Shown one piece after another: positions 20,301 through 62,178 of a stretch of DNA of 64,000 nt (positions within the stretch are counted from its first letter, which is position 1; every line of letters starts with the position of its first letter). Origin of the DNA: Centroscyllium fabricii (lineage: Eukaryota). The translations under genes and the position numbers were made by a program. The stretch lies in contig JBNRSN020000024.1 of NCBI GenBank assembly GCA_051313645.2, positions 74,028,001-74,092,000 of the forward strand, given 5' to 3'. Under the pieces are notes generated by a model. That model was not told where the DNA came from, ran no database searches, and saw only the letters and a list, made by a program, of their open reading frames with translations.

Positions 20301-22320
20301 AGATACAAAACTGAGTGAACAAATTATGTAAGACACCTAAATTGCTTAGTCCGCTAGTTTAACCATCATGTTAGTTTTGATTCCCGTCCAGCAATGTGCC
20401 ACCTTCTAAAAGTGTGAAGGAACCAAATTCAGAGATTAAGTTCCACATTTTAAAAGTCAAGTTAATTACTGTTGGCAAGTTATGACTGAGCAGTTGTTGC
20501 ACTGGTTGAAAGCAACCATTTGGTTACAAGCCAAAGAGGGAGGTAGATTTAAAATTCCTTCCCATGTAATACTGAACACAAAAAAAGGTCAGAAGAGGAA
20601 AGATTCACCGAGTTTAATGGTCTGCATAAATGCAACATTTTACTACAAGTTTTGATTTATAAACTATTTCTGGAAGTATACTGGATTTTGAAACAAACAC
20701 ATTAAACTGAAACAAGGTTGTTAAATGACAAGAACATTTACATTGAAAGTCCCACCCTGAAGCCAAAGGTTAAAGTAGCCATCACACCAAGTCCCCAATT
20801 TGCAGGGACTAGCATTGGTAATTTAGGAGAGTAGATTTGATTTTACCACTACCTCCTAAAAAGAATTGGCTTTGCCAAGATATGCCCAATCACATGGAGA
20901 CAGCACAAGTGTTTCCAGCACAAGGGCTCTCGACTGTCCAGTGACTTTGGAAGAAATGATTGAACAAGTTGAGAAAGCACTTGGCAATCAAGGGGGGGAA
21001 AAAGGGTCCAGAGTGTTGAAACTTGATTTAAGTACAGTTCCATGTTGTATGAAGAATGTATACAAACAAATAGCATCAGTGTTACCTTGAAACCCTGTTG
21101 GGGTCCATTTTAGATGCAGTCCACACCAGAAGGTGCACGGAGCAGCAATTATAAAGTGTTATGTAGCTAGGGGCTTATGACAAATACATTTTTTGCACAC
21201 ACAAGACATGTATAATGAGACTTCAGAATTCACCATGCTGAACAGAATTCAAGACCTGTGCATTTGACGACAGTTCCAGCACAGAAGGAGTCCAGAGATC
21301 AAGGCCAATGTGAGGGCAATCACTGCTGCTGCAAATAGGACGCCATCAGCTACATTTCCTGTAAACAGATTTAAAGTTGTGAGACTGACGCTGTATACCA
21401 ATGATTACATGCACTATCCTCCCATTCTACTTCCAGCTAGCTTATACCAATATTCTTCATCTCACTCGATTATACACCAGTGCCCAATGAATGTTTTGAA
21501 ACAGGTTCTCCACTACACCATACCAATGATAGCTTCAAGATCCCATGTTATATCAATGCCTTCAGAATTCCCAATATGGTTAATACATCTTTCCAAGGTT
21601 CTGACCACCAGTTCACCACACACCTCAATCAGGTCAGCTGCACCAAATTTAGACCAGCAACTCTAGAAAGCACAACTGCTACTTCCTTGTAACCCATGCT
21701 CTTCAATCTGAAGCCAAATATCATGACAAGGAATGTTATGTTGACTCACATCAAGCTACTACCCTATAGCAAAGGCATTAAGCCAACACTGCAATACCAT
21801 AATCTAGTACGAGCCATTTGGTCTACCAAATTTACTACAGCTGGGAGGCAAATCCAGTTAGGAGCACAGCAGAATACAAAGTGTTACCTTCATTCTGGGC
21901 TCTTGCCAAGTGAAGCTCTTTTGAGTACCCATATGCCTATTGTCCAAAGGGGTGTAATTTAACCTGGTTAACAAAAGTAAATACATACAAGTAACATTTC
22001 CCCAGTGCCAAAGACTGGTTTGTACCTTGTGGCAGTGATTTAGCGCAGGAGTTAACTTAATTTTCAAATTATTCCACATTTGTTAAGTGAACCTGAAGCA
22101 GTTTGGGGACACTGCAGTGACTACACCCAGTTGCACCAGAAGGCATTTTACAAGGACTGGCATTGCCAATATAAAAGAAATGGCAGGAGCTGTAGTGAAG
22201 TACTTACAAGAGGCAGGAAACAATGCTGGGGTAGAATGAGCGCACAAGGGCCAGAATAGCAATATCCCCGATTAGCCAATAAAGTTAGGGCCACTAGACA
22301 TGATTATTTAATTTACAATG

Positions 22321-25300
22321 TCAGGTCTGCAGGGCCTGTTCATCCAATTCTGCAAATTTACAAGTGAGCCCTTCAAAAAGTAGTTAGCTGCCAGTTCAGT
22401 CTTCACATTACAATTATGGCGCAGGATTATGACATATTTTGGTTAGGAATAGGCATGCAGAACACTTCATACCATTTGTCTGGGAAGATTCATCAACACG
22501 CTCTTCAAGAGAGAAAATTATTGGCTTCTTCAGTGTTACCAGTCCTTGGTGTTGGGCTTCAATTGAAGAAAGTAAGTCTGAATTTCTGGTGATTCCTGGC
22601 AAAGGAGAAAGTGTTAGATATTCTACATATTAGTCAGTGATATTCTACATATTAGTCAGTCATCTACAACCCACTCGAAGCCTGAAATTTGCAATCATTT
22701 AAGCCTTTCCTAGTCTCAAAATAGTTGGTTTTCTAGTGCAAGCAAATAATGAGGCACTCACGGCAGCCTGCGGTTATATTTCAGCTTCACAACTGTGAAA
22801 CACTGCTGAAAGATCCCTGCAGACTGCACATTGCAGGTTCATGCAGCTCAAATTGTGGAAAGTTGCATGAGAGAGTCAAGGCAGCAGAGAATCAGATTTA
22901 ATACACAATTATTGGTCTGCCTACAATAGCTGTAGAAAAATCATGGCTGAAAGATGGGCAGCATGAAATATTTGAAGTCGCAGGTGCTGCTTACTTTTTC
23001 CAGCGTCACACGTTGTGCTACACTTTTCCATTTCAGACAGAAGGCACACAGCTGCACTACAATGAAAGTAGACCTACAAGGGAGAAAAAAGTTATACTGG
23101 AGCACCAAGTCAGTGAGAACATAAGAGCAGGAGTAGATCTCACAGCCCCTAAAGCCTGCTCTGCCATTCAATAAAAAGTATGAAAAAAGGTCTAACCTCT
23201 CCAGTCAAGAGGACGTGAACTCTGCCCCAAAACGTAAAGGTCTTCACTTCAAACCGTTTGTGATGTGTTGGAAACTGCAAGCTGGGAGTGGCATCGACTG
23301 CATGCAACTGGGTCAAGTAGTTGTCCTTATAATATGGGCACCTAGGACAAAAAAAACCCACCAAAGGCTTTGTTGTGAAGGTGTTCATCCTGGATACAGA
23401 ATGCTTATTTGTCCAGCTTAGCTGCTGTGAAGATTATTCTTACTATGGGGGGGGGGGGGGGGGGTAAGGTACAAAAGGAGATAGATAAATTAATACTATG
23501 GGGGGGGGCGTGTAAGGTACGAAAGGATAGAGAAATTAAAAGTTCCTTTCACATCAAGTCATAGTGAACATGGGGAAACTGAATCTGCACACAGCAAAGG
23601 TCTCCCAAAAAACCAATGAGCCAAGATGAGACCAGACCATCTACAAGATGCACTGCAGCAACTCGCCAAGGCTTCTTCAGCAGCACCTCCCAAACCCATG
23701 ACCTCTACCACCTAGAAGGAAAAGGGCAGCAGGCACATGGGACCACCACCAGCTACAAGTTTCCTTCCAAGTTACACACCATCCTGATTTGGGAAGTATA
23801 TCACAGTTCTCAGTCACTGGGTCAAAATCCTGGAACTCCCTCCCCAACAGCACTGTGGGAGTACCCACAGATTGCAGTGGTTCAAGGTGGCAGCTCACCT
23901 CCTGCAGGGCAACTAGGGATGGGCAATAAATGCTGGCCTTGCCAGTGATGCCCACATCTCATAAGTGGAAAAAAAGATTGGAGTGTTGCTGCTGGAAATA
24001 AATGTTGGCCAAGACATAGAATTCCCAGCTCTGAATGGTGCCAAGAAATCTTCCACACAAAAGAGGGTATATGGACCCATTTAAAGTGTAGCGTGCAACA
24101 CTTAGCGGAGGATGTCAGCTTAGGTCTTGGTTTCTTGCCGCTGGGTCTGACAGTAGGGAAATATCAAACTGGTGTGAAGAAGGTGGAGAAGATCTTTGAA
24201 CTAAAAAAAAAAGTGAACTGGATCTTGGTCTTTTACTTAAATACTAAACAGCTTCAAATTTTAGCTGCAAGATTTTCCAGACATGCTAAATAATTATTGC
24301 ACAACTATAGCAATCCTGGTAACAAAGGGGAAATTAAGGCCAAGAAAAACAAGAAAGTTTCAATGCTGTAGTCACATTCAAGCCATGAACCTGGCTACAA
24401 AGGCAAATATTGAATTATCGATTGGGAAATAAACTGCCTAGCCACAAGCCTCAGCTGAAGAAGCTTTAAGACAGTATAAGGGAAGTGTGGAAGTATACTT
24501 GCCCTTTCACAAGAATGCTCCACTGTTTGCCATGATGAGGGGCTGGTGTTTGGGTTGCCCAACAGTCATTCAGCACGAGTGCAATGTTGGCATCCACTCT
24601 GTGGAGAAGGCGTACTTCTACATACACTGGCTCCCTAAGAAATTTTACTATCGGGTAGTCTTCATCAGCAAACCAATTACTGTAGGACTCCTCTGTGGAA
24701 ATAAACTAGATCAGTAAAAAAATGTACAGGCCTAGTATTCTTCCAACTCACATTGAAAGTTTGCGTTACCTTTTGCAATCCTCATTTCCATTTGGAGGAC
24801 ACCATCCTGCACGACAAAAGGCAGAGGCAAAGGAGTGTTCACCACCAGCGTCAAAGGGATGTTCCTCCGGCCTGTTAAATGGCAGGTCACGTGCAACCTA
24901 TAAGCAATAACATTAAAGGCTTTTCTCTTGTAGAAAGCATCAGCAAAACTACTAGAAATGGAGGAGCCAAAAAAAAGTGCCAATCATTGTAATAGACCTC
25001 CCAAGCTTAACATGAAAAGTGCTAAAGCTTTGCATCAGGGTGGAGTTATGGGTGGCAGGGGAGAAGAACTGGTGCAAGAGCCTGGGGGTAATGGAGCCAG
25101 GTTTAATCTCTGCCAATTTCACCATTACTGTACCACAATGAACTGATTTAAGCTCAGAGCTCAAATAAAGGAAGGTCTTGAGCAACTTTACCAAATGTGA
25201 CAAAAGTATATTACATGATACGATACTGCGGATGCTGGAAATCCAAACCGAAAAATGCTGGATCAACTCAGGTGGAGAGAAAGAGTTATCGTTTCAGGTC

Positions 25301-28300
25301 GATGGCCTTCAAGAAAGGTCAACTGTTTCTCTCTCCACCAATGCTGCTTGGCCTGCTGAGTTTCTCCAGCATTTTCTGCTGCTTTATATTACATGAGAAT
25401 GATGTTTTAAGTTAGAATGTTGAAAAACATGTGGGGAATACCCAAGGTGGCAGTGGCGACCAGTCTCCGTGCAATTATATATTTACATAATCAGACATGT
25501 CCATCGAGGGGGCATCAGGTAAAGCAAGAGAAAAACCTCCACAAAAAAAAAGGGACCTTTTGGCAACAGCCTGATGGATGAAACACTTTCCATTATTGCA
25601 TCGCGGTCCCATGTTAAAGTAATTGGACATGGAGGAGGAAGAGGGATGGTAGTGCAGGTCCAGCTTCATATTCCATGGGATAGCCACAGTCTCCTGAAGC
25701 TTCCTTCTGGGGGGGGGGTTTCCAATGTTTTTTGGGGGCTTGAAGTTGGCCATAAGCTCTCTCCTCTTGGATAGTGAGCACATGGATGGGTCTGGTCTTG
25801 CCAACACCTCCCATGACCTCACTAGCTGCCACAAGTGCAATTTTTAATTAGAAAGTTCGGTTTTGACCCAGTGCAGGATTCATAAGCTTACCTGAAAGTA
25901 CTGTCTCTGGTTATAGAGCCATGAGGTCCTTTACGGATTTTCCTTTTTGCCATTACATCCACTTCATAAGTGATGTTTACTCCATCAATCTATTAAAAAA
26001 CACAACTTGAGTTTGAGGAGTTGGTGACCCACTAAAAGCAAAAGATGTGCGGGTTAGGTTGATCGGCCATAAGAAATTGACCCTTAGTGTTAGGGGGATT
26101 AAATATGTGGGGTTACAGGGATAGGGTGGGCTGCGTGTCGGTGCAGACTTGATGGCCCGAAATGGCCTCTGTACTGTAGGGATTCTATGGAAAGAAAAAA
26201 AACTTACCGTTAGTGTGGTCCCACATGAACTTAAAGGAAATCTGAAGACAACAATTTCAGCCGTCCTGGCTACAGGGGCACATTCGGAACTCTCATTATT
26301 CACCAAGGAGACAGAGTCAAGATCAAGTGGGGGTACTGTTGCCACCCTGGGGACTACAATGGTAAATAGCCCATTGCTTGTGCAATCAATATAAGCTGGG
26401 GGAAGAAGAGGGTCATATGCAATTAGCAAACTTAAGTTTGCCACAAAAAAAAGTGTTTACTACAGCACTCAACTTGAAGGGACCAGTTGTCTAGCATTGG
26501 ATTTAAATTAGAACTTGCAAATTATATAAAATTTAACAAAATTTAGACTTTACAACAGGCCTCAAAGCTTTCTGCAAGCACACCGCCGATTACAAAGCTG
26601 CCACAGACTTGTGCCAACAGCACTTGAAAGTTGCCACTTTGTAGCAATGAATAAGGCTGACATGTACAAGCACCAACCTATTATTGCTGAAGTCAGAATA
26701 TGGAACAAATTGTACATTAGTAAGGTTCTCATCCATAGTCATTTTCCATAACCTGAATTTAAATAAAACCAACCAGTTTTTCCATAAAAGCAAGGGGTCT
26801 GCACATTGACTGGATCATAACAGCATCCTGTGGCACCACATGCCAGCTCACCAAGTGTGGCATTTCCACACCTTACACGGTCCTTGGCACCAACATCACA
26901 AATTTTGGCTTTGTCTGTAACAGGTAGAGGTTACAATGAATACCAAGTGGTGAACTGAACTGCAATTTAAAGAATCAAAAAGTCAAGACACCTAGTGTTG
27001 CATTCCAAGTAATCTTCAGGTGCACACATTTTACTACCCAAAGATTTGATATTAATCCCAAGTCAACATCAATTTTTCAAGATCATAATCTTGTTACAGG
27101 CTCTAGATAAGTTTGCAATATCCTATCATTTACATAAACTTGTAAATAGGTAATTTACTAGTACTTTAAGCAACAAACTTCAGGTGCGAAACACATTACC
27201 CACACTACATGGAGTAGGCTTTACATTAAAGCAAATCACTTTTGTTCTACCATTTAAAAAAAGTAATTTCCACTAACTTGATTGAGTTGTTTGATGAGGT
27301 AACAGAGGGCAGAGCAGTTGATGTTGTATATGGACTTTCAACAAGGTGTTTGATAAAGTACCACATACTAGGCTAGTTAGCAAAATGGAAGCCCATGGGA
27401 TACAAAATTAGCTAAGGGGGTAGAAAACAGTTGGTGAATGGTGGTTTCCCCAGACTGGAGGCATACAGTGGCATGTGAAGATTCAGTACTAGGACCACTG
27501 CCGCTTTTGATGGTCTTGTGGGTAAAGGGCACAATTTTGATACTTGCAGATTACACAACTTGGAAGTATAATAAACAGCAAAGAGAGCAAGACTTCAAGA
27601 CAGACTTGTGGAATGGGCAGATGCATAGCAAATGAAATTTAATGGAGACCACACTAAAAATGGTACCAGTTTAAAAAAAACAACCATGGGAAATCTTTGA
27701 AAGCAGCAGGACAAGTTAACAAAAGCAGTTTATAAAGCATATTGGATCATGGGCTTTATAAAGAGGCATATAAGAGTACAAAAGCCAGAAAGTTATGCCA
27801 AGCCTACATAAAACACCAAGTTCAGCCCCAGCTAGAGTATTGTCCATTTCTAGGCACCACACTATAGGAAATATGTGAAGGCTTTGGAGGGTACAGAAAA
27901 GATTTACTAGAATGATTCCAGGGATGAGGGATGGACAGACTAGAGAAGGTGAAGGTTGCTCTTTGGAGCAGAGAAGGTAAAGGAGATTTGACAGCGGTTT
28001 AAAATCATGAAGGGTTTAGCTAGTACTGTTTCCAATGGCTGAAGAGTTGATAACAAGAGGGCACAGATTTAAAAAGGTGACTGGCAAGGGAACTAGAGGC
28101 GACATGCGGAAGTTCAAAAGTGGTTAGGATTTGGAATGCACTGCCTGAGGAGTGGATATAGATTCAACAATAGCCTTCAAAGAGGGACATGGATAGATAC
28201 TTGAAATAGGGGAGTGGGAACTAACTGGATTGCTACGAGCCAACAGACTCAGCCTCCTGTGCTGTACTATGATTTTATGCCAGACAATACAAACTAACAT

Positions 28301-31300
28301 CTTTAAAAGCTAGTTGGCCTCTGGAGAATGATGCTTCACCGGCATTTCTACAAACAGACTCTGGCCTGCATTGGAGAAATAGCACTCTTACTGCACCAAG
28401 AAATTCCAGGGTGCTGTCCAGCCTTACTTTTAAAGCACTTAACATAGAAACTAGGAGCAGGCCATTCGGCCCTTCGAGCCTGCTCCGCCATTCAATGAGA
28501 TCATGGCTGATCATCCAAACCCAGCACCCCGCCCCTGCCCTCTCCCCATATCCCTATCGAGCCTGCATCAACACATATCCCACCCTATCCCCGTAACCCC
28601 ACATATTCAATCCCCCTAACAGTAAGAGTCAATTTATCCTGGCCAATCAACCTAACCCGCACATCTTTGGACTGTGGGAGGAAACCGGAGCACCCGGAGG
28701 AAACCCACGCAGACACGGGGAGAATGTGCAAACTCCACACAGATAGTACCAGAGGCTGGATTTGAACCCGGGTCTCCAGTGCTGTGAGACAACAGTGCTA
28801 ACCACTGAGCCACCGTGCCACCCTTGGGTGCATAAACATGCAAGAATTAGATGGTGGCAAATATTTCTTCCCAGGTAGAGGGATTTGAGAATTATACTAC
28901 CCGAAACATTAAATTGCATTTCAAAGCCAACCTTCACCCATCACCAATACAATTCCACCACCATTAGCAGTGCAAGAGGAAACGTCAAATAGCTTTTACA
29001 CTTCAAGCTTTCTGCTCCAGCACCACAAGCAAATTGGCACCAGCTTAGTTTTTGACATATCATACCTCCATTAAGACTATGATCAACTGGAATGGTTACT
29101 GGTGTTGCATTAACTGGCTTCCGATCTACTGGGATGGTTACTGGTGTTGCATTAACTGGCTTCCGATCTGCTGGGATGGTTACTGGTGTTGCATTAACTG
29201 GCTTCCGATCTGCTGGGATGGTTACTGGTGTTGCATTAACTGGCTTCAGTCCTGCTGGTATGGTTACAGGTGTTGCATTGACTGGCTTCCGATCTACTGG
29301 GATGGTTACTGGTATTGGCTTCAGTCCTGCTGGGATGGTTACTGGTGTTGCATTAACTGGCTTCCGATCGGCTGGGATGGTTACTGGTGTTGCATTAACT
29401 GGCTTCCGATCTGCTGGGATGGTTACTGGTGTTGCATTAACTGGCTTCAGTCCTGCTGGTATGGTTACAGGTGTTGCATTGACTGGCTTCCGATCTACTG
29501 GGATGGTTACTGCTGTTGCATTAACTGGCTTCAGTCCTGCTGGTATGGTTACAGGTGTTGCATTGACTGGCTTCCGATCTACTGGGATGCTTACTGGTGT
29601 TGGCTTCTGATCTACTGGGATGGTTACTGGTGTGGCATTAACTGGCTTCAGTCCTGCTGGTATGGTTACTGGTGTTGCATTAACTGGCTTCCGATCTGCT
29701 GGGATGGTTACTGGTGTTGCATTGACTGGCTTCCGATCTACTGGGATGGTTACAGGTGTTGCATTAACTGGCTTCAGATCTGCTGGGATGGTTACTGGTG
29801 TTGCATTGACTGGCTTCCGATCTACTGGGATGGTTACAGGTGTTGCATTAACTGGCTTCAGATCTGCTGGGATGGTTACTGGTGTTGCATTGACTGGCTT
29901 CCGATCTACTGGGATGGTTACAGGTGTTGCATTAACTGGCTTCAGATCTGCTGGAATGGTTACAGGTGTTGGCGTCAGTCCTGCTGGTATGGTTACTGGT
30001 GTTGCATTAACTGGCTTCCGATCTGCTGGGATGGTTACTGGTGTTGGCTTCTGATCTACTGGGATGGTTACTGGTGTTGCATTGACTGGCTTCCGATCTA
30101 CTGGGATGGTTACAGGTGTTGCATTGACTGGCTTCCGATCTACTGGGATGGTTACTGGTGTTGGCTTCCGATCTACTGGGATGGTTACTGGTGTTGCATT
30201 AACTGGCTTCTGATCTGTTGGGATGGTTACTGGTGTTGCATTAACTGGCTTCCGATCTGCTGGGATGGTTACTGGTGTTGCATTAACTGGCTTCCGATCT
30301 GCTGGGATGGTTACTGGTGTTGCATTAACTGGCTTCAGACCTGCTGGAATGGTTACTGGTGTTGGCGTCAGTCCTGCTGGTATGGTTACTGGTGTTGCAT
30401 TAACTGGCTTCCGATCTGCTGGAATGGTTACTGGTGTTGGCTTTTGTCCTGCTGGTATGGTTACTGGTGTTGGCTTCCGATCTACTGGGATGGTTACTGG
30501 TGTTGCATTAACTGGCTTCCGATCTGCTGGGATGGTTACTGGTGTTGGCTTCCGATCTGCTGGGATGGTTACTGGTGTTGCATTAACTGGCTTCCGATCT
30601 GCTGGGATGGTTACTGGTGTTGGCTTCCGATCTACTGGGATGGTTACTGGTGTTGCATTAACTGGCTTCAGTCCTGCTGGGATGGTTACAGGTGTTGCAT
30701 TGACTGGCTTCCGATCTACTGGGATAGTTACTGGTGTTGCATTAACTGGCTTCCGATCTGCTGGGATGGTTACTGGTGTTGCATTAACTGGCTTCCGATC
30801 TACTGGGATAGTTACTGGTGTTGCGTTAACTGGCTTCCGATCTACTGGGATAGTTACTGGTGTTGCGTTAACTGGCTTCAGACCTGCTGGTATGGTTGCT
30901 GGTGTTGCATTAACTGGCTTCTGATCGAAGGGAAAGGATCCTACTGTGGGGCCCACCATTGTTGAAAAGTCAGCTGTTGAAATTAAACAGACGGTTACAA
31001 AAGGAGCAAGAGTAGATTTAGAAAACAGCAGAAACATGGGTGGCAAGAGAAGACTTGTGGGCGCAAGGCTTTCAAATGCACATGGAATTTAAAAGTGCAA
31101 TTGCAAAAGAAGCAGGAGGGCATTTCTGAACTATATTGGCAGAGGAAATGAGGACCAGCAGTTACAGAGCAACAAAGACTTTCCAAAGCACCCTACAATT
31201 AGTGGGTTAATTTTGTTGTCACTTGTGTGCATCTTGACAGCCAAGGTCAAACAGTAACTGATAAAACTATATGGAATTAGTGGAATGCTGGCCAGAAGAT

Positions 31301-34300
31301 CTGGAGAACTGAATGCCTTTGTAGTAGACCATGTGGCCCTGGTTAAGTCAAGGTTCGCTCATTTAATATCACATTGGACTTGGACTATCAGCACCTCCAA
31401 CATTGCAGTACTGCTGCATGGTCAGTAGATTGCATACTGGAGTCCATATTGGGGAAGTGAATCAACAAATCAGAGCCATTAAAAAACCATGCATTACCAA
31501 CTGGACCAAGCTGCAACTGATCCAGGACACCGACATTTCAAAACAATAGGATTTGGCCACTGTGGGGCAGCAGATGGGTCAACACTGTACTGGAGGAAAG
31601 TGGCTTCTGTTGCAAATTAAATAAAACACTAAGTGTTTAAGACATACCAGTCACTTGAGCCAATGATGGCAGTGTACAGTTTACAGGAATGCGCTCGATA
31701 ACAATGATCCGTTTAGATGCATCAATTCCGTCAATTCTCAACTCCATGCTCACTGTTGTATTCTAGAGGGGGAGGAACAGCAATAGCATCCAATAAATTG
31801 AAAGCAAGCAAGCTTAATGCAATAGAACATTCCACCAAGATACAGCAGCAAAAAAAATTACACTGATCCAGTAGAGGAATATTTCTACCCATCACCAACC
31901 CATGCAAGGACAGTTACTTCACAATCAGCAATATTATTGACAGAAACAAAGACTATACTTACCATTAAATGAACATAGCATCCATTGTATGGAGTACTGA
32001 AGAGCAGTGACCCATCCAACTGTGGAATAGTTGTAAATTTACAGCTGCTAGGCAATGAACGCAAATCTCTTGGTATACCATAGTTATCTGTGCAATAAGA
32101 AAGTTTATTGTAAGATAGCAATAATACTGCAGATGCTGGAAATCCAAAACAAAAAAAACTCAAGCAGGCCAGGCAACATCGGTGGAGAGAAATATAGAGT
32201 TGATGTTTTGGGTTCAGACCCGTTGTCAAGACTAAAGCCAGGAAATGAAAGAGGTAGGAAGGCCGGGGGGGCTGCAAGGGAACAGAAAAATTAAAATAAA
32301 ATAAAAAAGTTTTATATAAAGACATTGAGGTATCCAATGCTGATGGGGCTGTGGACAGGAGACAGCTGTAGATTAGGTGTGAAAAGTACTGGTAGAATGA
32401 GGGGGCTGCTAGGAGAGAGAAGGCCAAATAAAAGGTGTGGCTAAATAGGTAAAAATACAATGGGCCAAAGTTATGATCTGAAATTGTTTAACATTGAGAG
32501 AGTCCGGAGGGCTGTAAAGTGTCTAATCGGAAGATATGGTCACTTCCAGCCACTGCAACAGTAGGGGGGTGGGGGGGAAACCAAAGCGTTATCAAAACAG
32601 TTAACCAGTAGAAATGGCTACAAGAGCAAGACAACTCAACTCACCTCCCAACTCTGATGTGGCATGTAGTTTCTACAGCAAGCACACATGGCCTATGAAC
32701 CAATTATACATGGAAGTGCCTGGGATGGTGTACCTCACGGATCTCCACACATCCATGTACCATTGATTTATAAGTCATATTAGTACAGGCTGCCCAAAGG
32801 CGATATCCATTGCAGAACACATTTAGACAGAAGCCAAAATACCACCCTTCACTTCCACTTACCTTTAAAGTGGTCATCAACACAATTCTCAAATTAATTA
32901 GTGTATGATCCATGAAGATGGCACAGAGGTGACCCAGTGTCAATGAGAAATAAATTCTCAGGCCTTGAATAAGTGATACACAGCCACACAACCAACTGAA
33001 ACAAAAAGTTAGATTCAAATAGACCCAAAAAAGGAAGCCTGAAAAGCTAATAACACACTGGCCAGTGCATGTGTCTCAGACTATTCCCAGTGGTGACCAC
33101 TGGTCATGGAAGGCCACAAGCAGATCACATGCTCCCTCTTCAGAGCCACCCAAGCAAGGACAAGACTGTGGGAGAGGCAGGCAGCCAGAGCAACCCTCCC
33201 AGTTGAGGACCTACAATACCAGCTCAACTGAGGGAATTAGAGACATGGTGTAATGTCACACTTGGCATATTCCAACCTTGTACAGCCAAATGTGGCCAAC
33301 TTATACACCACTTCAAAAGCAATCCAGTCACAAGTGCTTTGGCACATTCAGGCAACACAATAAAAGGCACTATATAAAGCATTTGTCCTAGTAAGAAGCT
33401 CAAAGAATGCCAGATTTATTTTTTTATTTTTTTAATATAAAAAAAAAGGTACAAGGAGATGCTCACATCCACATTGATCAAATAAAGCCAGCACAGCACC
33501 TGCATTACTCAACTGGTTTCAGCAACAGAGCTAATGACATTTCCAATGGCTTATATTCTTCCATACCCATCAGACACAGATCTGTCCTTTGGGAGGATCA
33601 GGTATACATCAAGAACTAAAGGGATATTGAATCTCCTAGCCAGAAGATTATATAAACCTGCAATTTTATTGCTTCAGACAGAAATCATATATTGAGAGAA
33701 CATTCACTCTTCCTTCCCCCACCCACCCCAAAAGGCAACATTTAAAATTGCCATACTCAGCCTAGAAATGACAAATAGGACATCTCAGGTTAGCAAGTTC
33801 CATTTTATAGTGCACCTCTGGTATAACATTTCCCCCAGTGTCCTGGCCATAATTTATCACTCAACTGTCCCAAAAAATCTGTTTTTTTATCCCATGATTT
33901 GAGAGACTTCAATTGGCTACCACATTCCCCTACATTAAGTGACTACTCAAAATTATCTGGTGAAAGGCACGACAGAACTTTTTTTTCCTTTTGTATAGGC
34001 AGACGTTTGAGGTCACTTCATTAGACAACCCCCCCCACCCCCCAACCCCCACCCCAAATCAGAGGAAGGAGATCAAAAGTATGAACAAAGTAGATTGAAG
34101 CGTTCAAACATTGGGCAAGCACACCACATTTATGGCAAGAATGAGGGACCAAAATAGTTAAAGGTCAAGCCAGTAGAGAAAGGTCAAGCCAGTAAGGAAC
34201 TAGAAAGCTTTGCTCCACGGAGGAGCATCACTGGCTGATACATTGACTACAGCAAGCAGCATTGGGCAGCTATTGGAAAATATTCTAGGGTAGGGAGTCA

Positions 34301-34764
34301 CACGAATAAAATTCGACCATCTGTGATGAGGTTTTACAAGAGATTCCATGAGTTACCATCCTGAGAAGGAGTGAAATTTTCCTCAATGAGAAAAAAAAAC
34401 ACCTCTCCCGATGTAGGTGTAACATCTTTGTTCAAAAAAAGAGATGGAAACAGGTATAGTTGGAGGGAAATACAACTGATGCTCCAAGTTACTTGAAACC
34501 AAGAGGAATCGAGATTGCTCCAAACCTCCCTTATTTATTTGAACCTTTCACGACTCCTGACTTACCCACGATTGAAAGTCGAATAGACATCCCCTGAAAC
34601 GAGTCATTGCGAATTCGCACCACGACCCCCAACGGCGTGCAAGTAATCTCCTCGGGATAGTCAAAGTATTGCACCGATACTGGGCCTCGCAGTCGGGGGG
34701 ATGAGCCCACAACCCGCCCCCTTAAACAGCTCCCGCAGAGAAACAAAAAGATCAAGAGCCACAT
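22321..34764 (-). CDS. ZP4: ZPB-class zona pellucida glycoprotein (ZP4/ZP1-like) with mucin-like repeat exon, copy A; 13 exons, ~1155 aa
   Basis: Exons (minus): 34764-34566, 32087-31963, 31762-31648, 30973-29066, 26914-26774, 26395-26208, 25989-25892, 24897-24770, 24692-24503, 23341-23197, 23073-22995, 22595-22473, last exon probably 22349-22321 (alternative 22189-22083). Phases compatible, total 3468 nt; signal peptide, 4-Cys ZP-N1, trefoil, GSITRDS, DYPIVKFLREPVYVEV, CWAT, GCPY, VYFHCSAAVC, furin-like KRITR. Confidence 0.88.
22473..22595 (-). CDS. ZP4: ZP copy A exon 12 (furin site, EHP)
   Basis: RITRNSD...GLVTLKKPIIFSLEE; TTTCTCCTTTGCCAG acceptor, GTATGA donor. Confidence 0.85.
22995..23073 (-). 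CDS. ZP4: ZP copy A exon 11 (end of ZP-C)
   Basis: VYFHCSAAVCLLSEMEKCSTTCDAGK. Confidence 0.92.
23197..23341 (-). CDS. ZP4: ZP copy A exon 10 (ZP-C)
   Basis: CPYYKDNYLTQL...FPTHHKRFEVKTFTF. Confidence 0.92.
23600..23960 (+). mobile_element. L2/CR1-type LINE 3' fragment (intronic; duplicated at ~53530-53895)
   Basis: Tail GGGCAACTAGGGATGGGCAATAAATGCTGGCCTTGCCAGTGATGCCCACATC shared with the SINE at 10712-11203. Confidence 0.65.
24503..24692 (-). CDS. ZP4: ZP copy A exon 9 (ZP-C; GC splice donor)
   Basis: YSNWFADEDYPIVKFLREPVYVEVRLLHRVDANIALVLNDCWAT...QWSILVKG, followed by GCAAGT. Confidence 0.92.
24770..24897 (-). CDS. ZP4: ZP copy A exon 8 (linker/IHP)
   Basis: LHVTCHLTGRRNIPLTLVVNTPLPLPFVVQDGVLQMEMRIAK. 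Confidence 0.92.
25892..25989 (-). CDS. ZP4: ZP copy A exon 7 (ZP-N)
   Basis: IDGVNITYEVDVMAKRKIRKGPHGSITRDSTFR. Confidence 0.92.
26208..26395 (-). CDS. ZP4: ZP copy A exon 6 (ZP-N)
   Basis: IDCTSNGLFTIVVPRVATVPPLDLDSVSL...ECAPV...VVFRFPLSSCGTT; GTAAG donor. Confidence 0.93.
26774..26914 (-). CDS. ZP4: ZP copy A exon 5 (trefoil domain)
   Basis: CDVGAKDRVRCGNATLGELACGATGCCYDPVNVQTPCFYG six-Cys trefoil pattern. Confidence 0.92.
27270..28275 (+). mobile_element. Old degenerate CR1 fragment (intronic; duplicated at ~57190-58190)
   Basis: Remnants AVDVVYMDF, GGAGGGTACAGAAAAGATTTACTAGAATGATTCCAGGG, TTGGAATGCACTGCCTG. Confidence 0.7.
28441..28823 (-). mobile_element. HE1-type V-SINE (intronic)
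   Basis: V-domain and HER1 tail; orthologous copy at 58351-58728. Confidence 0.9.
29066..30973 (-). CDS. ZP4: ZP copy A exon 4: Pro/Thr-rich VNTR exon (46 units, 636 codons)
   Basis: TTTCAACAG acceptor, GTATGA donor, phase 1-1; 36 x 42-bp and 10 x 33-bp units, no stop. Confidence 0.85.
29078..30922 (-). repeat. Coding minisatellite, 42-bp/33-bp units (copy A)
   Basis: Plus-strand unit GGGATGGTTACTGGTGTTGCATTAACTGGCTTCCGATCTGCT with a 9-bp-deleted variant. Confidence 0.97.
31648..31762 (-). CDS. ZP4: ZP copy A exon 3 (end of ZP-N1)
   Basis: NTTVSMELRIDGIDASKRIIVIERIPVNCTLPSLAQVT; CCCCTCTAG acceptor, GTATGT donor. Confidence 0.82.
31963..32087 (-). CDS. ZP4: ZP copy A exon 2 (ZP-N1)
   Basis: DNYGIPRDLRSLPSSCKF...STPYNGCYVHLM; TTGCACAG acceptor, GTAAGT donor. 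Confidence 0.88.
32125..32540. mobile_element. Penelope-like/short interspersed repeat fragment (related pieces at ~20010, ~25225, ~43430, ~62215)
   Basis: Recurrent motif ACTGCAGATGCTGGAAATC...CTCAGCAGGCCAGGCAGCATC...GGAGAGAAA; family assignment from recall only. Confidence 0.5.
34566..34764 (-). CDS. ZP4: ZP copy A exon 1 (signal peptide, start of ZP-N1)
   Basis: MWLLIFLFLCGSCLRG...ITCTPLGVVVRI...IRLSIV|G then GTAAG donor. Confidence 0.82.
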
Positions 34765-35019
34765 CTCGAACTGCTGGTGTCCCCTCAGCCAGCGCCAGAG
34801 CGCTTTTCAAGGGAACTTGTCTGCCCTGTTAACCATGTCTCAAATGCAAATTAAGACTCCCTGCATTCGATTGGGTGCGGTTAACCAGCAAGCCAAATAA
34901 AACACACTTTGTGCTTGATGCTACCTACTTTTCCTAATTAACTGATTGCCAATATCTTGTAACTATTTATCTATAGGCAGACATTTGAGGTCACTTCATT
35001 AGACAACCCCCCACCCCAC

Positions 35020-35275
35020 GTGGGTTCGAGGGATATGGGGAGAGGGCAGGGGCGGGGCGGGGCGGGGTACTGGGTTTGGATGATCAGCCATGATCTCATT
35101 GAATGGCGGAGCAGGCTCGAAGGGCCGAATGGCCTACTCCTGCTCCTATCTTCTGTTTCTGTTTCTGTTTCCTCCGGGTGCTCTGGTTTCCTCCCACAGT
35201 CCAAAGATATGCTGTGTCGGTGCAGGCTCCATGGGCCGAAATGGCCTCCATCTGCACTGTAGGGATTCTATGATT
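35020..35275 (+). mobile_element. Rearranged HE1/HER1 tail fragments
   Basis: GATCAGCCATGATCTCATTGAATGGCGGAGCAGGCTCGAAGGGCCGAATGGCC tail plus partial V-domain. Confidence 0.7.
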
Positions 35276-35309
35276 CTCCAAGCTTCCCGGTCATCTTCGC
35301 CCATTAATT

Positions 35310-35838
35310 GCCCTCATGCCCACAAGGCAGGGGTCAAAGTCACAAGCCCTCATGCCCACAAGGCAGGGGTCAAAGTCCAAGCCCTCATGCCTACAAGGCA
35401 GGGGTCAAAGTCCAAGCCCTCATGCCTACAAGGCAGGGGTCAAAGTCACAAGCCATCATGCCCGCAAGGCAGGGGTCAAAGTCCAAGCCCTCATGCCTAC
35501 AAGGCAGGGGTCAAAGTCACAAGCCATCATGCCCGCAAGGCAGGGGTCAAAGTCCAAGCCCTCATGCCTACAAGGCAGGGGTCAAAGTCACAAGCCATCA
35601 TGTCCGCAAGGCAGGGGTCAAAGTCCAAGCCCTCATGCCTACAAGGCAGGGGTCAAAGTCACAAGCCATCATGCCCGCAAGGCAGGGGTCAAAGTCCAAG
35701 CCCTCATGCCTACAAGGCAGGGGTCAAAGTCACAAGCCCTCATTCCTACAAGGCAGGGGTCAAAGTCCAAGCCATCATGCCCGCAAGGCAGGGGTCCCAG
35801 TCACAAGCCCTCATGCCCACAAGGCAGGGGTCCAAGTC
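35310..35838. repeat. Minisatellite, 15 units of 35/36 bp, upstream of ZP copy A
   Basis: Unit AAGCC(C/A)TCATGCC(TA/CG)CAAGGCAGGGGTCAAAGTC(C/AC); bracketed by the direct repeat AGCTTCCCGGTCATCTTCGCCC at 35281-35302 and 35845-35866. Confidence 0.95.
35330..35770. promoter_or_regulatory. Candidate homotypic array of nuclear-receptor DR1 sites (HNF4-type GGGTCAAAGTCCA x7; GGGTCAAAGTCACA x6)
   Basis: Motif matches counted by eye; 0.55-1.0 kb 5' of the ZP ATG; function untested. Confidence 0.45.
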
Positions 35839-36059
35839 TCGCCGAGCTTCCCGGTCATCTTCGCCCGTTCGTCTGGACAGCGGGTCTCCAGAAATTCACA
35901 CAGATGATCGAGTGAATTCTTGATGGACTGTTCATCGTAACTATGATTGACAAATAGACCTTTGCTCTTTAACGAGGCCTCTTTTTGCATGTTACCTTTG
36001 GAATTTGGATTTAGGGCCAGGGCCAATGCAAGGTTTTTTTTATATCTATTGTCAAATTA

Positions 36060-36700
36060 CCTAAATCATAATCACAGGCACAGGAGAGGGAGAAGAGAAG
36101 ATTTACAAGGATGATACCAGAACTGCGAGGTTATATCTATCAGGAAAGGATGAACAGGCTGGGTCTCTTTTCTCTTGAAAAGAGAAGGCTGAGGAGGTGA
36201 CCGATGGGCGGCACGGTGGCACAGTGGTTAGCTCTGTTGCCTCACAGCTCTGGAGACACGGGTTCAAATCCAGCCTCGGGTACTATCTGTGTGGAGTTTG
36301 CACATTCTCCCCGTGTCTGCGTGGGGTTCCTCCGGGTGCTCCGGTTTCCTCCCACAGTCCAAAAATGTGCGGGTTAGGTTGATTGACCAGGATAAATTGA
36401 CCCTTAGTGTTAGGGGGGTTGAATATGTGGGGTTACGGGGATAGGGTGGGATGTGTGTCGGTGCAGGCTCGATAGGGATATGGGGGGAGGGTAGGAGGGT
36501 GATGCTGGGTTTGGATGATCAGCCATGATCTCCTTGAATGGCGGAGCAGGCTCAAAGGGCCGAATGGCCTACTCCTGCTCCTATCTTCTATGTTTCTATG
36601 TTTCTAATAGAGGTCTTTAAAATTATGAAAGGTTTTCACAAGCGTGGATACATACCGAGTGTTTCCGCATGTGGGGAAGAGCAAAACTAGAGGCCGTCAA
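36060..36700 (+). mobile_element. CR1 fragment with inserted HE1 SINE
   Basis: RRFTRMIPELRGY.YQERMNRLGLFSLEKRRLR continues after the SINE as IEVFKIMKGF. Confidence 0.7.
36206..36606 (+). mobile_element. HE1-type V-SINE
   Basis: GGGCGGCACGGTGGCACAGTGGTTAGC head, V-domain, (TTTCTATG)n tail. Confidence 0.9.
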
Positions 36701-37893: not shown

Positions 37894-38165
37894 TGATGCA
37901 CAATCAATTACTACAGTCGATGGTTAGATATAATCGAGGCTTTTATTCACATAGAAGTGGACACAGGTCCGACGATCTTCCAAGCCAAAGTGAGAGCACT
38001 CAGGTGTGCTGGCACTTTTATACCCAGTGGGCGGAGCCTGGGGAGGAAGCCGGGGAGCGGAGTCCTCCCAGGTGAGTCCTTCCTGGCAAGGAGGCGTTAC
38101 GTACAATTACAGGGAGGGGACACAAGGGGGAGACATATATATACTATATACAGGCGTTTACCACA
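37894..38165 (-). repeat. Gypsy 3' LTR (272 bp)
   Basis: Direct repeat of 41793-42062. Confidence 0.95.
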
Positions 38166-38246
38166 TTCACCCCCTGTTTAAAAAAATGATGGCGGGGTGA
38201 ACAATCTTTCAGCATATTATACGAAAGTCAGCATATTATACAAAAG

Positions 38247-41760: not shown

Positions 41761-41792
41761 CCTCTTTGTAAAAAAGATTATGTGAATAATAT

Positions 41793-47578: not shown

Positions 47579-50574
47579 TATGTGAAGACTGGGACCCAGA
47601 GTGAAGGCATAAATGGTAGGGGAATACAACCTAATAAAGGAAAGCAGACTAGACAGCAAAACAAGGTAGTATTAGGTCAGAGAATGAAAGGTATATATTT
47701 TAACGCAAGGAGTCTGACTGACAAGGTGGATGAGTTAAAGGTATTGGTTGACACATGGGAATATGATATAGTAGCTATCACGGAGACGTGGCTGAAGGAG
47801 GGGCAGGAATGGCAGCTAAATATTCCGGGGTATAGAATTTTCAGGCGGGACAGAGACGAGGGAAAAAGGGGAGGGGGTAGCGATACTGATTAAGGATTCA
47901 ATCACAGCCATCAGGCGGGTCGACCTAATGGATGATTCCTCAAACGAGGCACTATGGGTGGAGGTAAAAAATAAAAAGGGGGGGGCACCTTACTGGGAGT
48001 ATATTATAGACCACCAAACAGTAATGGGGAGATGGAGGGCAAGATATGTGAGCAAATCACGAAGATAAGCGAAAATAACAAAGTAATAATATTAGGGGAC
48101 TTTAATTTCCCCAACATCAACTGGGATTGTCAGAGTATGAGGGACACGGAAGGTTCAGCATTCTTAAAATGCAGCCAAGAGAGTTTTTTGAAGCAATATG
48201 TTGGGTCACCTACAAGGGGGGGGGCGGTACTAGACCTAATACTTGGGAACGAAGACAGGCAGATAGAGGTGGTAACAGTGGGGGAGCACTTCGGGGATAG
48301 TGACCACAATTCAGTTAGTTTCAAGATTGTAATAGAGAAGGATAAAAATGGACCAGGGGTAAAAGTACTAAACTGGGGGAAGGCGGATTTCATTAAAATT
48401 AGGCGCGATGTAGCCGCAGTAGACTGGGGCCATCTTCTCAGAGGAAGATCTGCATCAGAGCAGGGGGAGGCCTTCAGAGGGAAGGTCGGGAAGATACAGG
48501 AGGAACATGTTCCTGCAAAAATCAAGGGCGGGGGAGGTAAACAAAGGGAACCTTGGATGTCTAGGGATATATGTAAATTAATGAAGAAAAAAAGGGGGGC
48601 CTTCAATGAATATAAACAGCTAAAAACGGAGGAGGTGCTAGGGGAGTATAAGAAGTATAGGGGGGAATTAAAGAAGGAGATAAGAAAAGCCAAGAGGGGT
48701 CATGAGATTGCAATGGCCGGCAAAATCAAGGATAACCCTAAGGCATTTTACAGTTATATAAAAAACAAAAGGATCACGAGGGAAAGAGTGGGGCCCATTA
48801 AGGACGATAGCGGAAAGCTGTGCGTCGAGCCCGAGGCGGTGGGGGAGGTACTAAACGAATTTTTCTCTTCAGTATTCACAAGAGAGAGGGACGGAACCGA
48901 CATTGTAATCGGACAGAGGGTAGGGGGGGTAATTGAGGATATTACCATTACAAGGGAAGAAGTACTAGAAATCTTGGGAAGCTTAAGGGTAGACAAATCA
49001 CCAGGGCCGGACGCGATGTTCCCCAGGCTGCTGTTCGAGGCCAGGGAAGAGCTTGCAGGCCCCCTGTCTCAAATTTTCAGGTCCTCTCTCGCGTCAGGGG
49101 AGGTACCCGAGGACTGGAGAACAGCTAATGTAGTACCCCTGTTTAAAAAGGGTAGTAGGGACAAACCGGGTAACTATAGGCCAATCAGTCTTACATCTGT
49201 AGTGGGGAAAGTAATGGAAAAAATTCTGAGGGACAAAATCAGTCTGCATTTGGAAAGGCAGGGTCTGATAAGAGATAGTCAACATGGCTTCGTCAAAGGT
49301 AAGTCGTGCCTAACTAATCTCTTGGAATTCTTCGAAGAGGTAACAAAAAGGGTGGATGAAGGGAGTACGGTCGACGTGGTGTATATGGACTTCAGCAAGG
49401 CTTTTGATAAAGTCCCACATAGGAGACTGATAACAAAGGTAAAAGCACATGGGATACAGGGCAACGTGGCAGTGGATTCAAAATTGGCTGGGGGACAGGA
49501 GACAAAGGGTAATGGTAGAGGGCTGCTTCTGTGACTGGAAACCAGTAACCAGCGGAGTCCCCCAAGGATCGGTTTTGGGACCCTTACTGTTTCTAGTATA
49601 CATTAATGATTTGGACACGGGAGTAGGGGGTACGATCAGCAAATTTGCTGATGATACGAAAATTGGAAGGGTGGTAAATAACGATGAAGATAGTAAAAGG
49701 CTCCAGGAAGATATAAATGTAATGGTTAGTTGGGCAGAAAAATGGCAAATGGAGTTCAACCCAGAGAAATGTGAGGTCATACAATTTGGCAGACCAAATG
49801 GGGTAAGGGAATATACCATGAACAAAAAAACATTAGGTAGGACCGAGGAACAGAGGGACCTTCGGGTACAGGTGCACAGCTCCCTGAAGGTTGCTGGACA
49901 CGTAAACAAGGTGGTTAAGAAGGCATATGGAATTCTGGCCTTTATTAACCAGGGCATAGTGTACAAAAGTAGGGAGGTAATGTTAAACTTGTATAACACG
50001 CTGGTGAGACCTCAGCTGGAGTACTGTGTGCAGTTCTGGTGACCGCACTTCAGGAAGGATGTGGTTGCCCTGGAGAGGGTGCAGAGAAGGTTTACCAGGA
50101 TGATACCTGGTCTGGGGGACTTATGCTACGAGGAAAGGCTGGACAGGCTGGGGTTGTTTGCCTTGGAGAAGAGAAGATTGAGGGGTGACATGATCGAGGT
50201 GTACAGGATCATGAGGGGACACAATAAGGTGGATAAAGGGGCATTGTTTCCCTTGGTGGGAGAGTCAAGTACCAGGGGACATGGATTCAAGATTAGGGGG
50301 GGGGGGGGGGGAAAGGTAAGGAGAAATTTCTTTACTCAGAGGGTGGTGGAAGTGTGGAACTCCCTGCCTGTAAGGGTGGTGGAGGCAGAAACCATCGCAA
50401 CATTTAAAAAAAATTTGGACCAGCACATGAAGGACCGTAACATACAGGGTTATGGGCCAGATGCGGGCAAATGGGGTTAGTATAGTGAGGAGTTTCCTGG
50501 GCCGGTGCGGACTGGATGGGCCGAATGGCCTTTATCCGCACTGTAAAGTTTCTATGATTCTATGATTCTATGAT
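47579..50574 (+). mobile_element. Young CR1 LINE, 5'-truncated but with whole ORF2 (APE endonuclease + RT), present only in copy B
   Basis: MKGIYFNARSL...[58 protein letters not shown]; (ATTCTATG)n tail; empty site CCCATG|TAATACTGAAC at 20561-20577. Confidence 0.95.
47684..50480 (+). pseudogene. CR1 ORF2 with a few frameshifts and one in-frame stop
   Basis: Pieces 47582-47893, 48032-49534, 49449-50042, 50061-50480; TGA at 50040-50042 where the family has Ser (QFWSP). Confidence 0.85.
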
Positions 50575-52306
50575 AATACTGAACACAAAAAAGGTCAGAA
50601 GAGGAAAGATTCACCGAGTTTAATGGTCTGCATAAATGCAACATTTTACTACAAGTTTTGATTTATAAACTATTTCTGGAAGTAGACTGGATTTTGGAAC
50701 AAACATTAAACTGAAACAAGGTTGTTACGACAAGAACATTTACATTGAAAGTCCCACCCTGGAGTCAAAGGTTAACGTAGCCATCACACCAAGTCCCCAA
50801 TTTGCAGGGACTTGCATTGGTAATTTAGGAGAGTGAGTAGATTTGATTTTACCACTACCTCCTAAAAAGAATTGGCTTTGCCAAGATATGTCCAATCACA
50901 TGGAGACAGCACAAGTGTTTCCAGCACAAGGGCTCTCGACTGTCCAGTGACTTTGGAAGAAGTGATTGAACAAGTTGAGAAAGCACTTGGCAATCAAGGG
51001 GGGGGAAAAAAGGGTCCAGAGTGTTGAAACTTGATTTAAGTACAGTTCCATGTTGTATGAAGAATGTATACAAACAAATCGCATCAGTGTTACCTTGAAA
51101 CCCTGTTGGGGTCCATTTTAGATGCAATCCACACCAGAAGGTGCACTGAGCAGCTAGGGGCTTATGACAAATACATTTTTTGCACACACAAGACATGTAT
51201 AATGAGACTTCAGAATTCACCATGCTGAACAGAATTCAAGACCTGTGCATTTGACGACAGTTCCAGCACAGAAGGAGTCCAGAGATCAAGGCCAATGTGA
51301 GGGCAATCACTGCTGCTGCAAATAGGACGCCATCAGCTACATTTCCTGTAAACAGATTTAAAGTTGTGAGACTGACGCTGTATACCAATGATTACATGCA
51401 CTATCCTCCCATTCTACTTCCAGCTAGCTTATACCAATATTCTTCATCTCACTCCATTATACACCAGTGCCCAATGAATGTTTTGAAACAGGTTCTCCAC
51501 TACACCATACCAATGATAGCTTCAAGATCCCATGTTATATCATGCCTTCAGAATTCCCAATATGGTTAATACATTTTTCCAAGATTCTGACCAGTTCACC
51601 ACACACCTCAATCAGGTCAGCTGCACCAAATTTAGACCAGCAACTCTAGAAAGCACAACTGCTACTTCCTTGTAACCCATGCTCTTCAATCTGAAGCCAG
51701 ATATCATGACAAGGAATGTTATGTTGACTCACATCAAGCTATTACCCTATAGCAAAGGCATTAAGCTAACACTGCAATACCATAATCTAGTACGAGCCAT
51801 TTCGTTTACCAAATTTACTACAGCTGGGAGGCAAATCCAGTTAGGAGCACAGCAGAATACAAAGTGTTACCTTCATTCTGGGCTCTTGCCAAGTGAAGCT
51901 CTTGAGTACCCATATGCCTATTGTCCAAAGGGGTGTAATTTAACCTTGTTAACAAAAGTAAATACATACAAGTAACATTTCCCCAGTGCCAAAGACTGGT
52001 TTGTACCTTGTGGCAGTGATTCAGCGCAGGAGTTAATTTTCAAATTATTCCACATTTGTTAAGTTAAGTTAAGTGAACCTGAAGCAGTTTAGGGACACTG
52101 CAGTGACTACACCCAGTTGCACCAGAAGGCATTTTACAAGGACTGGCATTGCCAATATAAAAGAAATGGCAGGAGCTGTAGTGAAGTACTTACAAGAGGC
52201 AGGAAACAATGCTGGGGTAGAATGAGCGCACAAGGGCCAGAATAGCAATATCCCCGATTAGCCAATAAAGTTAGGGCCACTAGACATGATTATTTAATTT
52301 ACAATG

Positions 52307-61300: not shown

Positions 61301-62178
61301 TTGTCACTTGTGTGCATCTTGACAGCCAAGGTCAAACAGTAACTGATAAAACTATATGGAATTAGTGGATTGTGGAATGCTGGCCAGAAGATCTGGAGAA
61401 CTGAATGCCTTTGTAGTAGACCATGTGGCCCTGGTTAAGTCAAGGTTCGCTCATTTAATATCACATTGGACTTGGACTATCAGCACCTCCAACAGTGCAG
61501 TACTGCTGCATGGTCAGTAGATTGCATACTGAGTCCATATTGGGGAAGTGAATCAACAAATCAGAGCCATTAAAAAACCATGCATTACCAACTGGACCAA
61601 GCTGCAACTGATCCAGGACACCGACATTTCAAAGCAATAGGATTTGGCCACTGTGGGGCAGCAGATGGGTCAACACTGTACTGGAGGAAAGTGGCTTCTG
61701 TTGCAAATTAAATAAAACACTAAGTGTTTAAGACATACCAGTCACTTGAGCCAATGATGGCAGTGTACAGTTTACAGGAATGCGCTCGATAACAATGATC
61801 CGTTTAGATGCATCAATTCCGTCAATTCTCAACTCCATGCTCACTGTTGTATTCTAGAGGGGGAGGAACAGCAATAGCATCCAATAAATTGAAAGCAAGC
61901 AAGCTTAATGCAATAGAACATTCCACCAAGATACAACAGCAAAAAAAATTACACTGATCCAGCAGAGGAATATTTCTACCCATCACCAACCCATGCAAGG
62001 ACAGTTACTTCACAATCAGCAATATTATTGACAGAAACAAAGACTATACTTACCATTAAATGAACATAGCATCCATTGTATGGAGTACTGAAGAGCAATG
62101 ACCCATCCAACTGTGGAATGGTTGTAAATTTACAGCTGCTGGGCAATGAACGCAAATCCCTTGGTATACCATAGTTAT
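52307..62178 (-). CDS. ZP4: ZPB-class zona pellucida glycoprotein (ZP4/ZP1-like), copy B, exons 2-13 (exon 1 beyond window)
   Basis: Exons (minus): 62178-62054, 61853-61739, 61058-58968, 56832-56692, 56313-56126, 55910-55813, 54827-54700, 54625-54439, 53308-53164, 53040-52962, 52579-52457, probable last 52335-52307; splice sites intact, frames open. Confidence 0.86.
54439..54625 (-). CDS. ZP4: ZP copy B ZP-C exon with GC donor
   Basis: 3 nt shorter than copy A (HH>H), in frame. Confidence 0.9.
56126..56313 (-). CDS. ZP4: ZP copy B ZP-N exon
   Basis: As copy A except CAPV>CASV. Confidence 0.9.
56692..56832 (-). CDS. ZP4: ZP copy B trefoil exon
   Basis: Matches 26774-26914. Confidence 0.9.
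58351..58728 (-). mobile_element. HE1-type V-SINE (duplicate of 28441-28823)
   Basis: Same intronic position in copy B. Confidence 0.9.
58968..61058 (-). CDS. ZP4: ZP copy B VNTR exon (51 units, 697 codons)
   Basis: 38 x 42-bp and 13 x 33-bp units; same acceptor and donor as copy A. Confidence 0.85.

Follow-up and report, generated by a model that had tools for sequence, protein, structure and literature searches.

A 35/36-bp minisatellite with HNF4-type sites upstream of a shark egg-coat gene is probably a local copy of an abundant repeat family

Does a tandem array rich in nuclear-receptor sites, lying close upstream of a shark ZP gene, control that gene, or is it a repeat that happens to stand beside it? 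The preliminary description of this locus proposed the former, an enhancer amplified in tandem. We examined the array, its flanks and the neighboring gene within the whole stretch of DNA analyzed (64 kb, hereafter the window), as well as the abundance of its unit in public sequencing runs, and consider the latter answer the probable one.

RESULTS AND DISCUSSION

Structure of the array

The array and the features around it are listed below, with coordinates given within the window.

35022..35277, plus strand: cluster of very high-copy retroposon pieces between promoter and array, with many copies in the window and a summed depth of up to ~2 to 3 million times that of exon 1 (runs described below)
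35278..35305, plus strand: left copy of the flanking direct repeat, containing the 22-mer 35281-35302 and starting at the end of a SINE/LINE-type tail
35310..35838, unstranded: minisatellite, 15 units of 35/36 bp (unit count and TRF)
35367..35769, plus strand: seven copies of the DR1 13-mer GGGTCAAAGTCCA, starting at 35367, 35402, 35473, 35544, 35615, 35686 and 35757, all in 35-bp units
35842..35869, plus strand: right copy of the flanking direct repeat, retaining two CpG that are CpA in the left copy
35870..36082, unstranded: right flank, unique within the window and CpG-rich
36083..36601, unstranded: LINE fragment and full SINE-like copy, the far-side boundary of the region; 36083-36201 matches the LINE at 50072-50189, which has RT domains

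Unit starts span 35310-35807. The 36-bp and 35-bp lengths account for seven units each, and the final unit stops after 32 nt at 35838. TRF described the array with a period of 71 and 7.5 copies (95% matches, score 909), and the corresponding alternation of 71-bp dimers occupies units 4 to 13. The edge units 1 and 14 are of the 36-bp form and the interior is alternating. Mean pairwise identity among units was 93% over the shared 32 nt, units 1, 2 and 15 being the nearest to the consensus, and the unit was found nowhere else in the 64-kb window. The 13-mer GGGTCAAAGTCCA appears in 7 of the 15 units and GGGTCAAAGTCACA in 6, preceded in every unit by CAAGGCA. All these counts and coordinates confirm those first described, including the position of the array, given as 0.55 to 1.07 kb upstream of the ZP ATG and found at 546 to 1074 bp (ATG at 34764, minus strand). 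There are thus seven homotypic sites at 0.6 to 1.0 kb from the ATG, the kind of motif cluster looked for in a tandem-repeat enhancer. A shuffle test of the motif count (seven observed versus a mean of 1.1) restates the repetition of the unit, and the seven copies of GGGTCAAAGTCCA are one event, not seven.

Around the array, a perfect direct repeat of 22 bp had been described. The 22-mer is indeed present at both ends, at 35281 and 35845 and at no other position of the window (0 of 100 shuffles reached two matches), but the true repeat is longer, 28 to 31 bp, and imperfect, with 28 of 31 positions identical between 35275-35305 and 35839-35869. The 31-bp version begins on the right at 35839, directly after the last unit. 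The 28-bp core has two differences, at each of which the left copy has changed from CpG to CpA, so that the duplication probably has some age.

Pieces of SINEs and LINEs neighbor the array on both sides. Toward the promoter, ~255 bp of retroposon intervene, whose pieces (35022-35277) we take to be HE1/HER1. Both HE1/HER1 and SacSINE1 are known shark retroposons (PMC10468316, PMC3747384, PMC10315846). On the far side, the segment 36200-36601 has four other copies in the window, and the stretch 35839-36080 stands out by a CpG observed/expected ratio of 0.9 versus 0.4 for the whole window. Local repeat searches found no terminal inverted repeats around the array, Rfam recognized no family in it (one chance match fell outside), and its translation gave no match among 8,000 candidates scored from a protein database. 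A bacterial promoter scan of the region was empty and irrelevant. As a source of the unit, a LINE segment at 7596-7613 that matches it at 16 of 18 bases (E 0.22) was considered insufficient. On the minus strand, an 81-codon open frame (35814-36056) runs through the right direct repeat. Its faint likeness to ferritin, over 25 residues (best E 0.032), was judged to be chance. This frame had no Pfam hit, no match among 146 candidates and Atlas scores below 0.9, and a search against 1.84 billion representatives returned a repeat-protein artefact as the sole match.

The neighboring ZP gene and its promoter

The gene downstream of the array, its promoter and a second copy of it have the following coordinates.

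21249..34764, minus strand: ZP1/ZP4 (ZPB)-type gene, copy A, with signal peptide, N-terminal ZP-N, mucin-like repeat exon, trefoil, ZP-N, ZP-C and transmembrane helix
34765..35021, minus strand: proximal promoter region (word matches only, without a chance test)
50574..64000, minus strand: copy B of the ZP gene, 90 to 93% identical, with exon 1 and promoter beyond the window

Pfam searches with the window exons of copy A and with full homologs recovered the N-terminal ZP-N, trefoil, ZP-N and ZP-C domains, the N-terminal piece below the cut-off (E 1.5e-4). Copy A would appear to be intact, since its exon flanks are consistent with an intact gene. The closest named proteins came from Heptranchias perlo (86% over one exon), followed by other sharks and rays, and the homologs (18 matches among 32 candidates) were annotated as ZP4-like, ZP1-like or mucin-like. 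Scyliorhinus, Pristis and Rhincodon also have homologs. By its domains we assign the gene to the ZP1/ZP4 (ZPB) subfamily as a whole. A transmembrane helix is predicted in both gene copies (19-residue hydropathy of 2.6) and in 18 of 18 homologs.

The window contains a tandem duplication of the ZP gene region (20567-33899 and 50574-64000, 90 to 93% identical), with exons found by homology in both copies. Next to it, 18601-20565 matches 45437-47579, partly inverted, and a 3-kb LINE occupies ~47580-50574. In both copies the ZP-C exon seems to end at a GC donor (~24503 and near 54439). A coding minisatellite with 42-bp and 33-bp units (29081-30926 and 58983-61011) encodes a long insert between ZP-N1 and trefoil that is rich in Pro, Thr and Val and has numerous N-A-T sequons. 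Turnover of this insert is fast, as the homologs have other repeat units in its place and Narcine lacks such units altogether.

Within the proximal promoter, the words detected were E-box hexamers at 223 and 82 bp before the ATG, CCAAT at 189 and 110, an octamer at 87 and a receptor half-site at 229. The stretch 34972-35017 (46 to 48 bp, with E-box and receptor half-site) is repeated at 94% in intron 1 (33994-34041). A search of the window for estrogen elements with up to two mismatches gave five matches, none of them within 1.6 kb of the ATG and the nearest in a SINE.

The gene is most likely of the oocyte type rather than the liver type, to judge from its predicted features, because the transmembrane anchor is retained, an E-box is present and no estrogen element lies nearby. 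In stickleback, the ZP proteins made in the liver are described as having lost the transmembrane domain (PMC8362008), a loss that the shark gene does not share. Mammalian ZP genes carry an E-box at ~200 bp upstream that has been tied to oocyte expression (PMC8391237), and the shark E-box at 223 bp is near that spacing, a hexamer match alone being weak. Liver expression of ZP genes in fish has been dated to the Clupeocephala (PMC13704971). One observation goes against the oocyte reading: avian ZP1, a product of the liver, contains an insert similar to the repeat that separates ZP-N1 from trefoil in the shark protein (PMC6626044). Avian ZP1 and the hepatic ZP genes of teleosts, as far as these sources describe them (PMC6626044, PMC8362008, PMC13704971), thus resemble the shark gene in the ZP1/ZP4 architecture and in the place of the repeat, and differ from it in that the shark gene retains the transmembrane helix, has a Pro/Thr/Val-rich rather than Pro/Gln-rich repeat, and has no estrogen element near the ATG. 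Expression in oocytes would not exclude HNF4, which has been described as maternally transferred, with references to Xenopus oogenesis (PMC5041327). We found no report on the sites of ZP expression in sharks in the literature covered, most subscription journals being outside the search.

Nuclear-receptor motifs in the unit

The repeated element had been read as the HNF4-specific DR1 signature. Fang et al. (2012; PMC3384313) defined CAAAGTCCA as the HNF4-specific core, and in the 35-bp units (7 of 15) it occupies positions 5 to 13 of a DR1. The likeness extends to the exact 13-mer, since GGGTCAAAGTCCA was itself tested and has an HNF4-alpha PBM2 signal of 17.8 in the first row with a value of Table S4, the highest among the rows examined. 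The next signals in the 3,000-probe sheet are 15.4 and 15.0, and the canonical DR1 has 12.0 (PMC3384313). Because this sheet is sorted by signal, descending in every row examined, GGGTCAAAGTCCA is apparently the strongest HNF4-alpha probe of the published array. It differs from the HNF4-specific class in being a hybrid, named there as one of two exceptions that are weakly bound also by RXR and COUP-TF2 (2.2 and 2.6; class "common"), and the binding was measured on naked DNA with human proteins. The CAAAGTCCA core is missing from the 36-bp units, and their exact 13-mer was absent from the four supplementary files of PMC3384313 that were searched (file 1 excepted). The nearest probes gave 1.22 and 1.31, barely over the cut-off of log2 0.046 (PMC3384313), and these units probably bind HNF4 weakly. 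The signature was therefore recognized correctly as to the core in 7 of the 15 units, with a top-signal probe, but it is not exclusive to HNF4 and does not extend to the 36-bp units.

Where chromatin is open, HNF4 would be expected to bind the 35-bp form, because this form spells a top-affinity HNF4 site. The chance of such a match is, per unit, ~3e-4 for the 9-mer, ~1e-6 for the exact 13-mer and ~3e-3 for any of the ~3,000 predicted HNF4-specific 13-mers. The match is a real coincidence that needs explanation, yet it is one draw, picked post hoc among many repeats and factors.

The CAAGGCA heptamer had been called loosely NR5A-like, a suggestion that did not hold. The NR5A (SF-1/LRH-1) consensus, which we take to be YCAAGGYCR, matches four sites in the window and none in the array, with 5.0 expected by chance, and CAAGGCAG does not fit it.

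Abundance of the unit in close relatives

Twenty public runs contain part of 34562-36080, and four of these were analyzed, three from organism A (two samples) and one from organism B, with contigs placed on 34400-35345. This interval ends after unit 1, so that the depth concerns a 36-bp unit only. Exon 1 in both organisms was ~99% identical to the window, and for this reason they would belong to the same species as the window or to closely related ones. Over exon 1 and promoter (34400-35012), organism A had five to six site differences and a 4-bp insertion relative to the window, with two of the differences common to B.

Exon 1 depth in the four runs was ~22.8, 10.9, 12.2 and 3.1, while on the second half of unit 1 it reached 128,440, 66,327, 70,688 and 4,816. 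The summed contig depth of unit 1 was 5,633, 6,085 and 5,794 times that of exon 1 in organism A and 1,554 times in organism B, an excess present in all four runs. LINE sequence that happens to match the second half of the unit does not account for this depth, since the first half was deep too (1,100 to 4,000 times exon 1 in its bin). Summed depth is no copy number, and it was corrected with our own model, which uses unitigs and a placement rule of our own. In this model a single array of this kind would reach 44 times exon 1, or 318 in the worst case, with each 31-mer its own contig. The modeled excess would amount to ~130 arrays' worth (~2,000 units) in A and ~35 (~500 units) in B, with lower bounds of at least 18 (~270 units) and at least 5 (~70 units), respectively. 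Contigs running over the ends of the stretch numbered 72, 60, 67 and 23, with an expectation of 9 for the right end. Three variants of the unit-to-unit junction, none of them present in the window, appeared at depths of 79 to 513.

The unit is thus far too abundant for a single locus of the size of the window array, and it belongs to an abundant minisatellite family in these close relatives. The depth fits many short arrays or a few very long blocks equally well, even blocks at this very locus in the relatives. Finding the array within a dispersed repeat at unrelated loci had been named beforehand as evidence against an enhancer. The abundance beyond one locus goes in that direction, but unrelated flanks were not among the contigs displayed. 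The bin at the end of the direct repeat was slightly deeper than a pure array predicts (ratio of 0.66 to 0.72 observed versus 0.44 modeled).

The shares of words found per run (0.35 to 0.47 for A and 0.25 for B) are mostly explained by words of the exon, promoter and SINE. They would hint that the exact variants of the window array are scarce in the relatives and are too rough to use. Runs labeled as RNA had shares below 0.1 and carried no tissue label. Exact 19-mer scans of metagenome and viral contigs gave 21 and 2 loci, with one match each extending to at most 23 bp, which is chance. In the shark repeat literature covered by our search, which left out most subscription journals, we found no description of such a family.

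Passenger or regulatory element

Families of multicopy minisatellites or satellites that are scattered through genomes in short arrays form a general class of repeats. The shark array shares with them a 35/36-bp unit, a higher-order dimer, variant junctions and differing abundance in related organisms. It is probably a slippage-expanded local copy of an abundant shark minisatellite family, a passenger that does not control the oocyte-type ZP4/ZP1 gene beside it, and it is the abundance of the unit in close relatives that makes this likelier than an enhancer built for the gene. A short unit-bearing piece would have arrived, or been duplicated, together with the direct repeat of 28 to 31 bp; a 1-bp indel would have produced the two unit lengths, 35 and 36 bp, and slippage or unequal exchange would then have duplicated the 35+36 dimer some five times. 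The ZP gene would most likely be driven in oocytes from its proximal promoter, with the array neutral or silenced there. Clusters of homotypic motifs in tandem repeats can be enhancers but are described as often held closed (PMC13373173).

The enhancer reading from which we started, a locus-specific amplification at the ZP gene alone whose copy number tunes hepatic expression, now looks very unlikely. Its factual core remains, the motif in 7 of 15 units, but the step to an enhancer of this gene is undercut because the unit, at 1,554 to 6,085 times exon depth in the relatives versus 44 (318 at worst) for one array, is too abundant for one locus of this size. Arrays confined to the locus would give the same depth if they were giant (~70 kb in A and 19 kb in B), and the position of the array, the quality of the motif and the restriction of the unit to a single place in the 64-kb window agree with such a view. 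It demands, however, arrays 35 to 130 times longer in two organisms, with variants absent from the window array, next to a gene that looks oocyte-type. Better placed, though still unlikely, is a widespread family in which the HNF4-optimal 35-bp form arose or amplified here and enhances the ZP gene, in the liver or in oocytes via maternal HNF4; we give co-option of the array in general a similarly low probability. The apparently top HNF4-alpha probe in seven copies within 1.1 kb of the ATG speaks for it, and the 36-bp edge units 1 and 14 beside an alternating interior fit a later origin of the 35-bp form, as we infer. Maternal transfer of HNF4 (PMC5041327) and the enhancer activity that homotypic clusters in tandem repeats can have (PMC13373173) are compatible with it too. 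Weighing against co-option are the retained transmembrane anchor, the E-box, the lack of an estrogen element within 1.6 kb of the ATG, the ~255 bp of retroposon that separate array and promoter, and the closed state in which such clusters are often held (PMC13373173).

The passenger reading overlaps with another account, by which an unrecognized nonautonomous mobile element contains the array as its internal repeat and also comprises the direct repeat and the right flank. This account would only name the vehicle, and we regard it as quite unlikely. The bracketing direct repeats and the CpG-rich flank suggest such an element, as does the deeper bin at the end of the direct repeat (0.66 to 0.72 versus 0.44), an excess that could stem from overhang placement; no inverted termini were found by the local repeat searches, nor any protein homolog for the frames of flank or array. 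A length of 28 to 31 bp is long for a target-site duplication. Finally, that the array is an assembly artefact, or a decayed ferritin-like coding sequence with a repeated end, is extremely unlikely. Independent runs contain the unit in tandem, and the weak 25-residue match of the flank frame to ferritin chains is set against the empty Pfam, candidate and representative searches given above.

Among enhancers made of tandem repeats, the MORC3-repressed IFNB1 enhancer (PMC13373173) is the nearest comparison, a head-to-tail repeat with many copies of the motif of one factor near a gene. As described there, it has SPI, AP-1 and SP/KLF motifs and its activity was shown, whereas the shark array has nuclear-receptor DR1 motifs in seven copies, is built from a multicopy unit and is known from its sequence.

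The most likely reading is therefore an ordinary repeat, with the caution that a motif repeated within a minisatellite counts as a single chance event and that abundance across the genome needs checking before an enhancer is called. What rises above this background is that the 35-bp unit matches the apparently best HNF4 probe and that one relative would contain ~2,000 units of the family. A family in which the HNF4-optimal form is common could add many HNF4 sites to these genomes; a form restricted to this locus would offer a clean test case of how a repeat becomes an enhancer and of where sharks make their egg-coat proteins. There is a slim chance that the family seeds clusters of near-optimal HNF4 sites genome-wide and that this one has been recruited as a driver of the duplicated egg-coat gene with its membrane anchor, via liver HNF4 or maternal HNF4 in the oocyte. 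Cartilaginous fishes would then have an independent route to egg-coat synthesis under HNF4 control, with repeat number as a means of tuning it.

Other elements in the window

Two further elements were observed elsewhere in the window. An LTR retrotransposon-like element at 37894-42062 has direct repeats of 272 bp (95% identity), with protease, RT and integrase domains between them. On the plus strand, a coiled-coil open frame of 256 codons (3342-4112), presumably resembling CCDC92, is probably the last exon of a neighboring gene, its Pfam match being weak and the Atlas result ambiguous.
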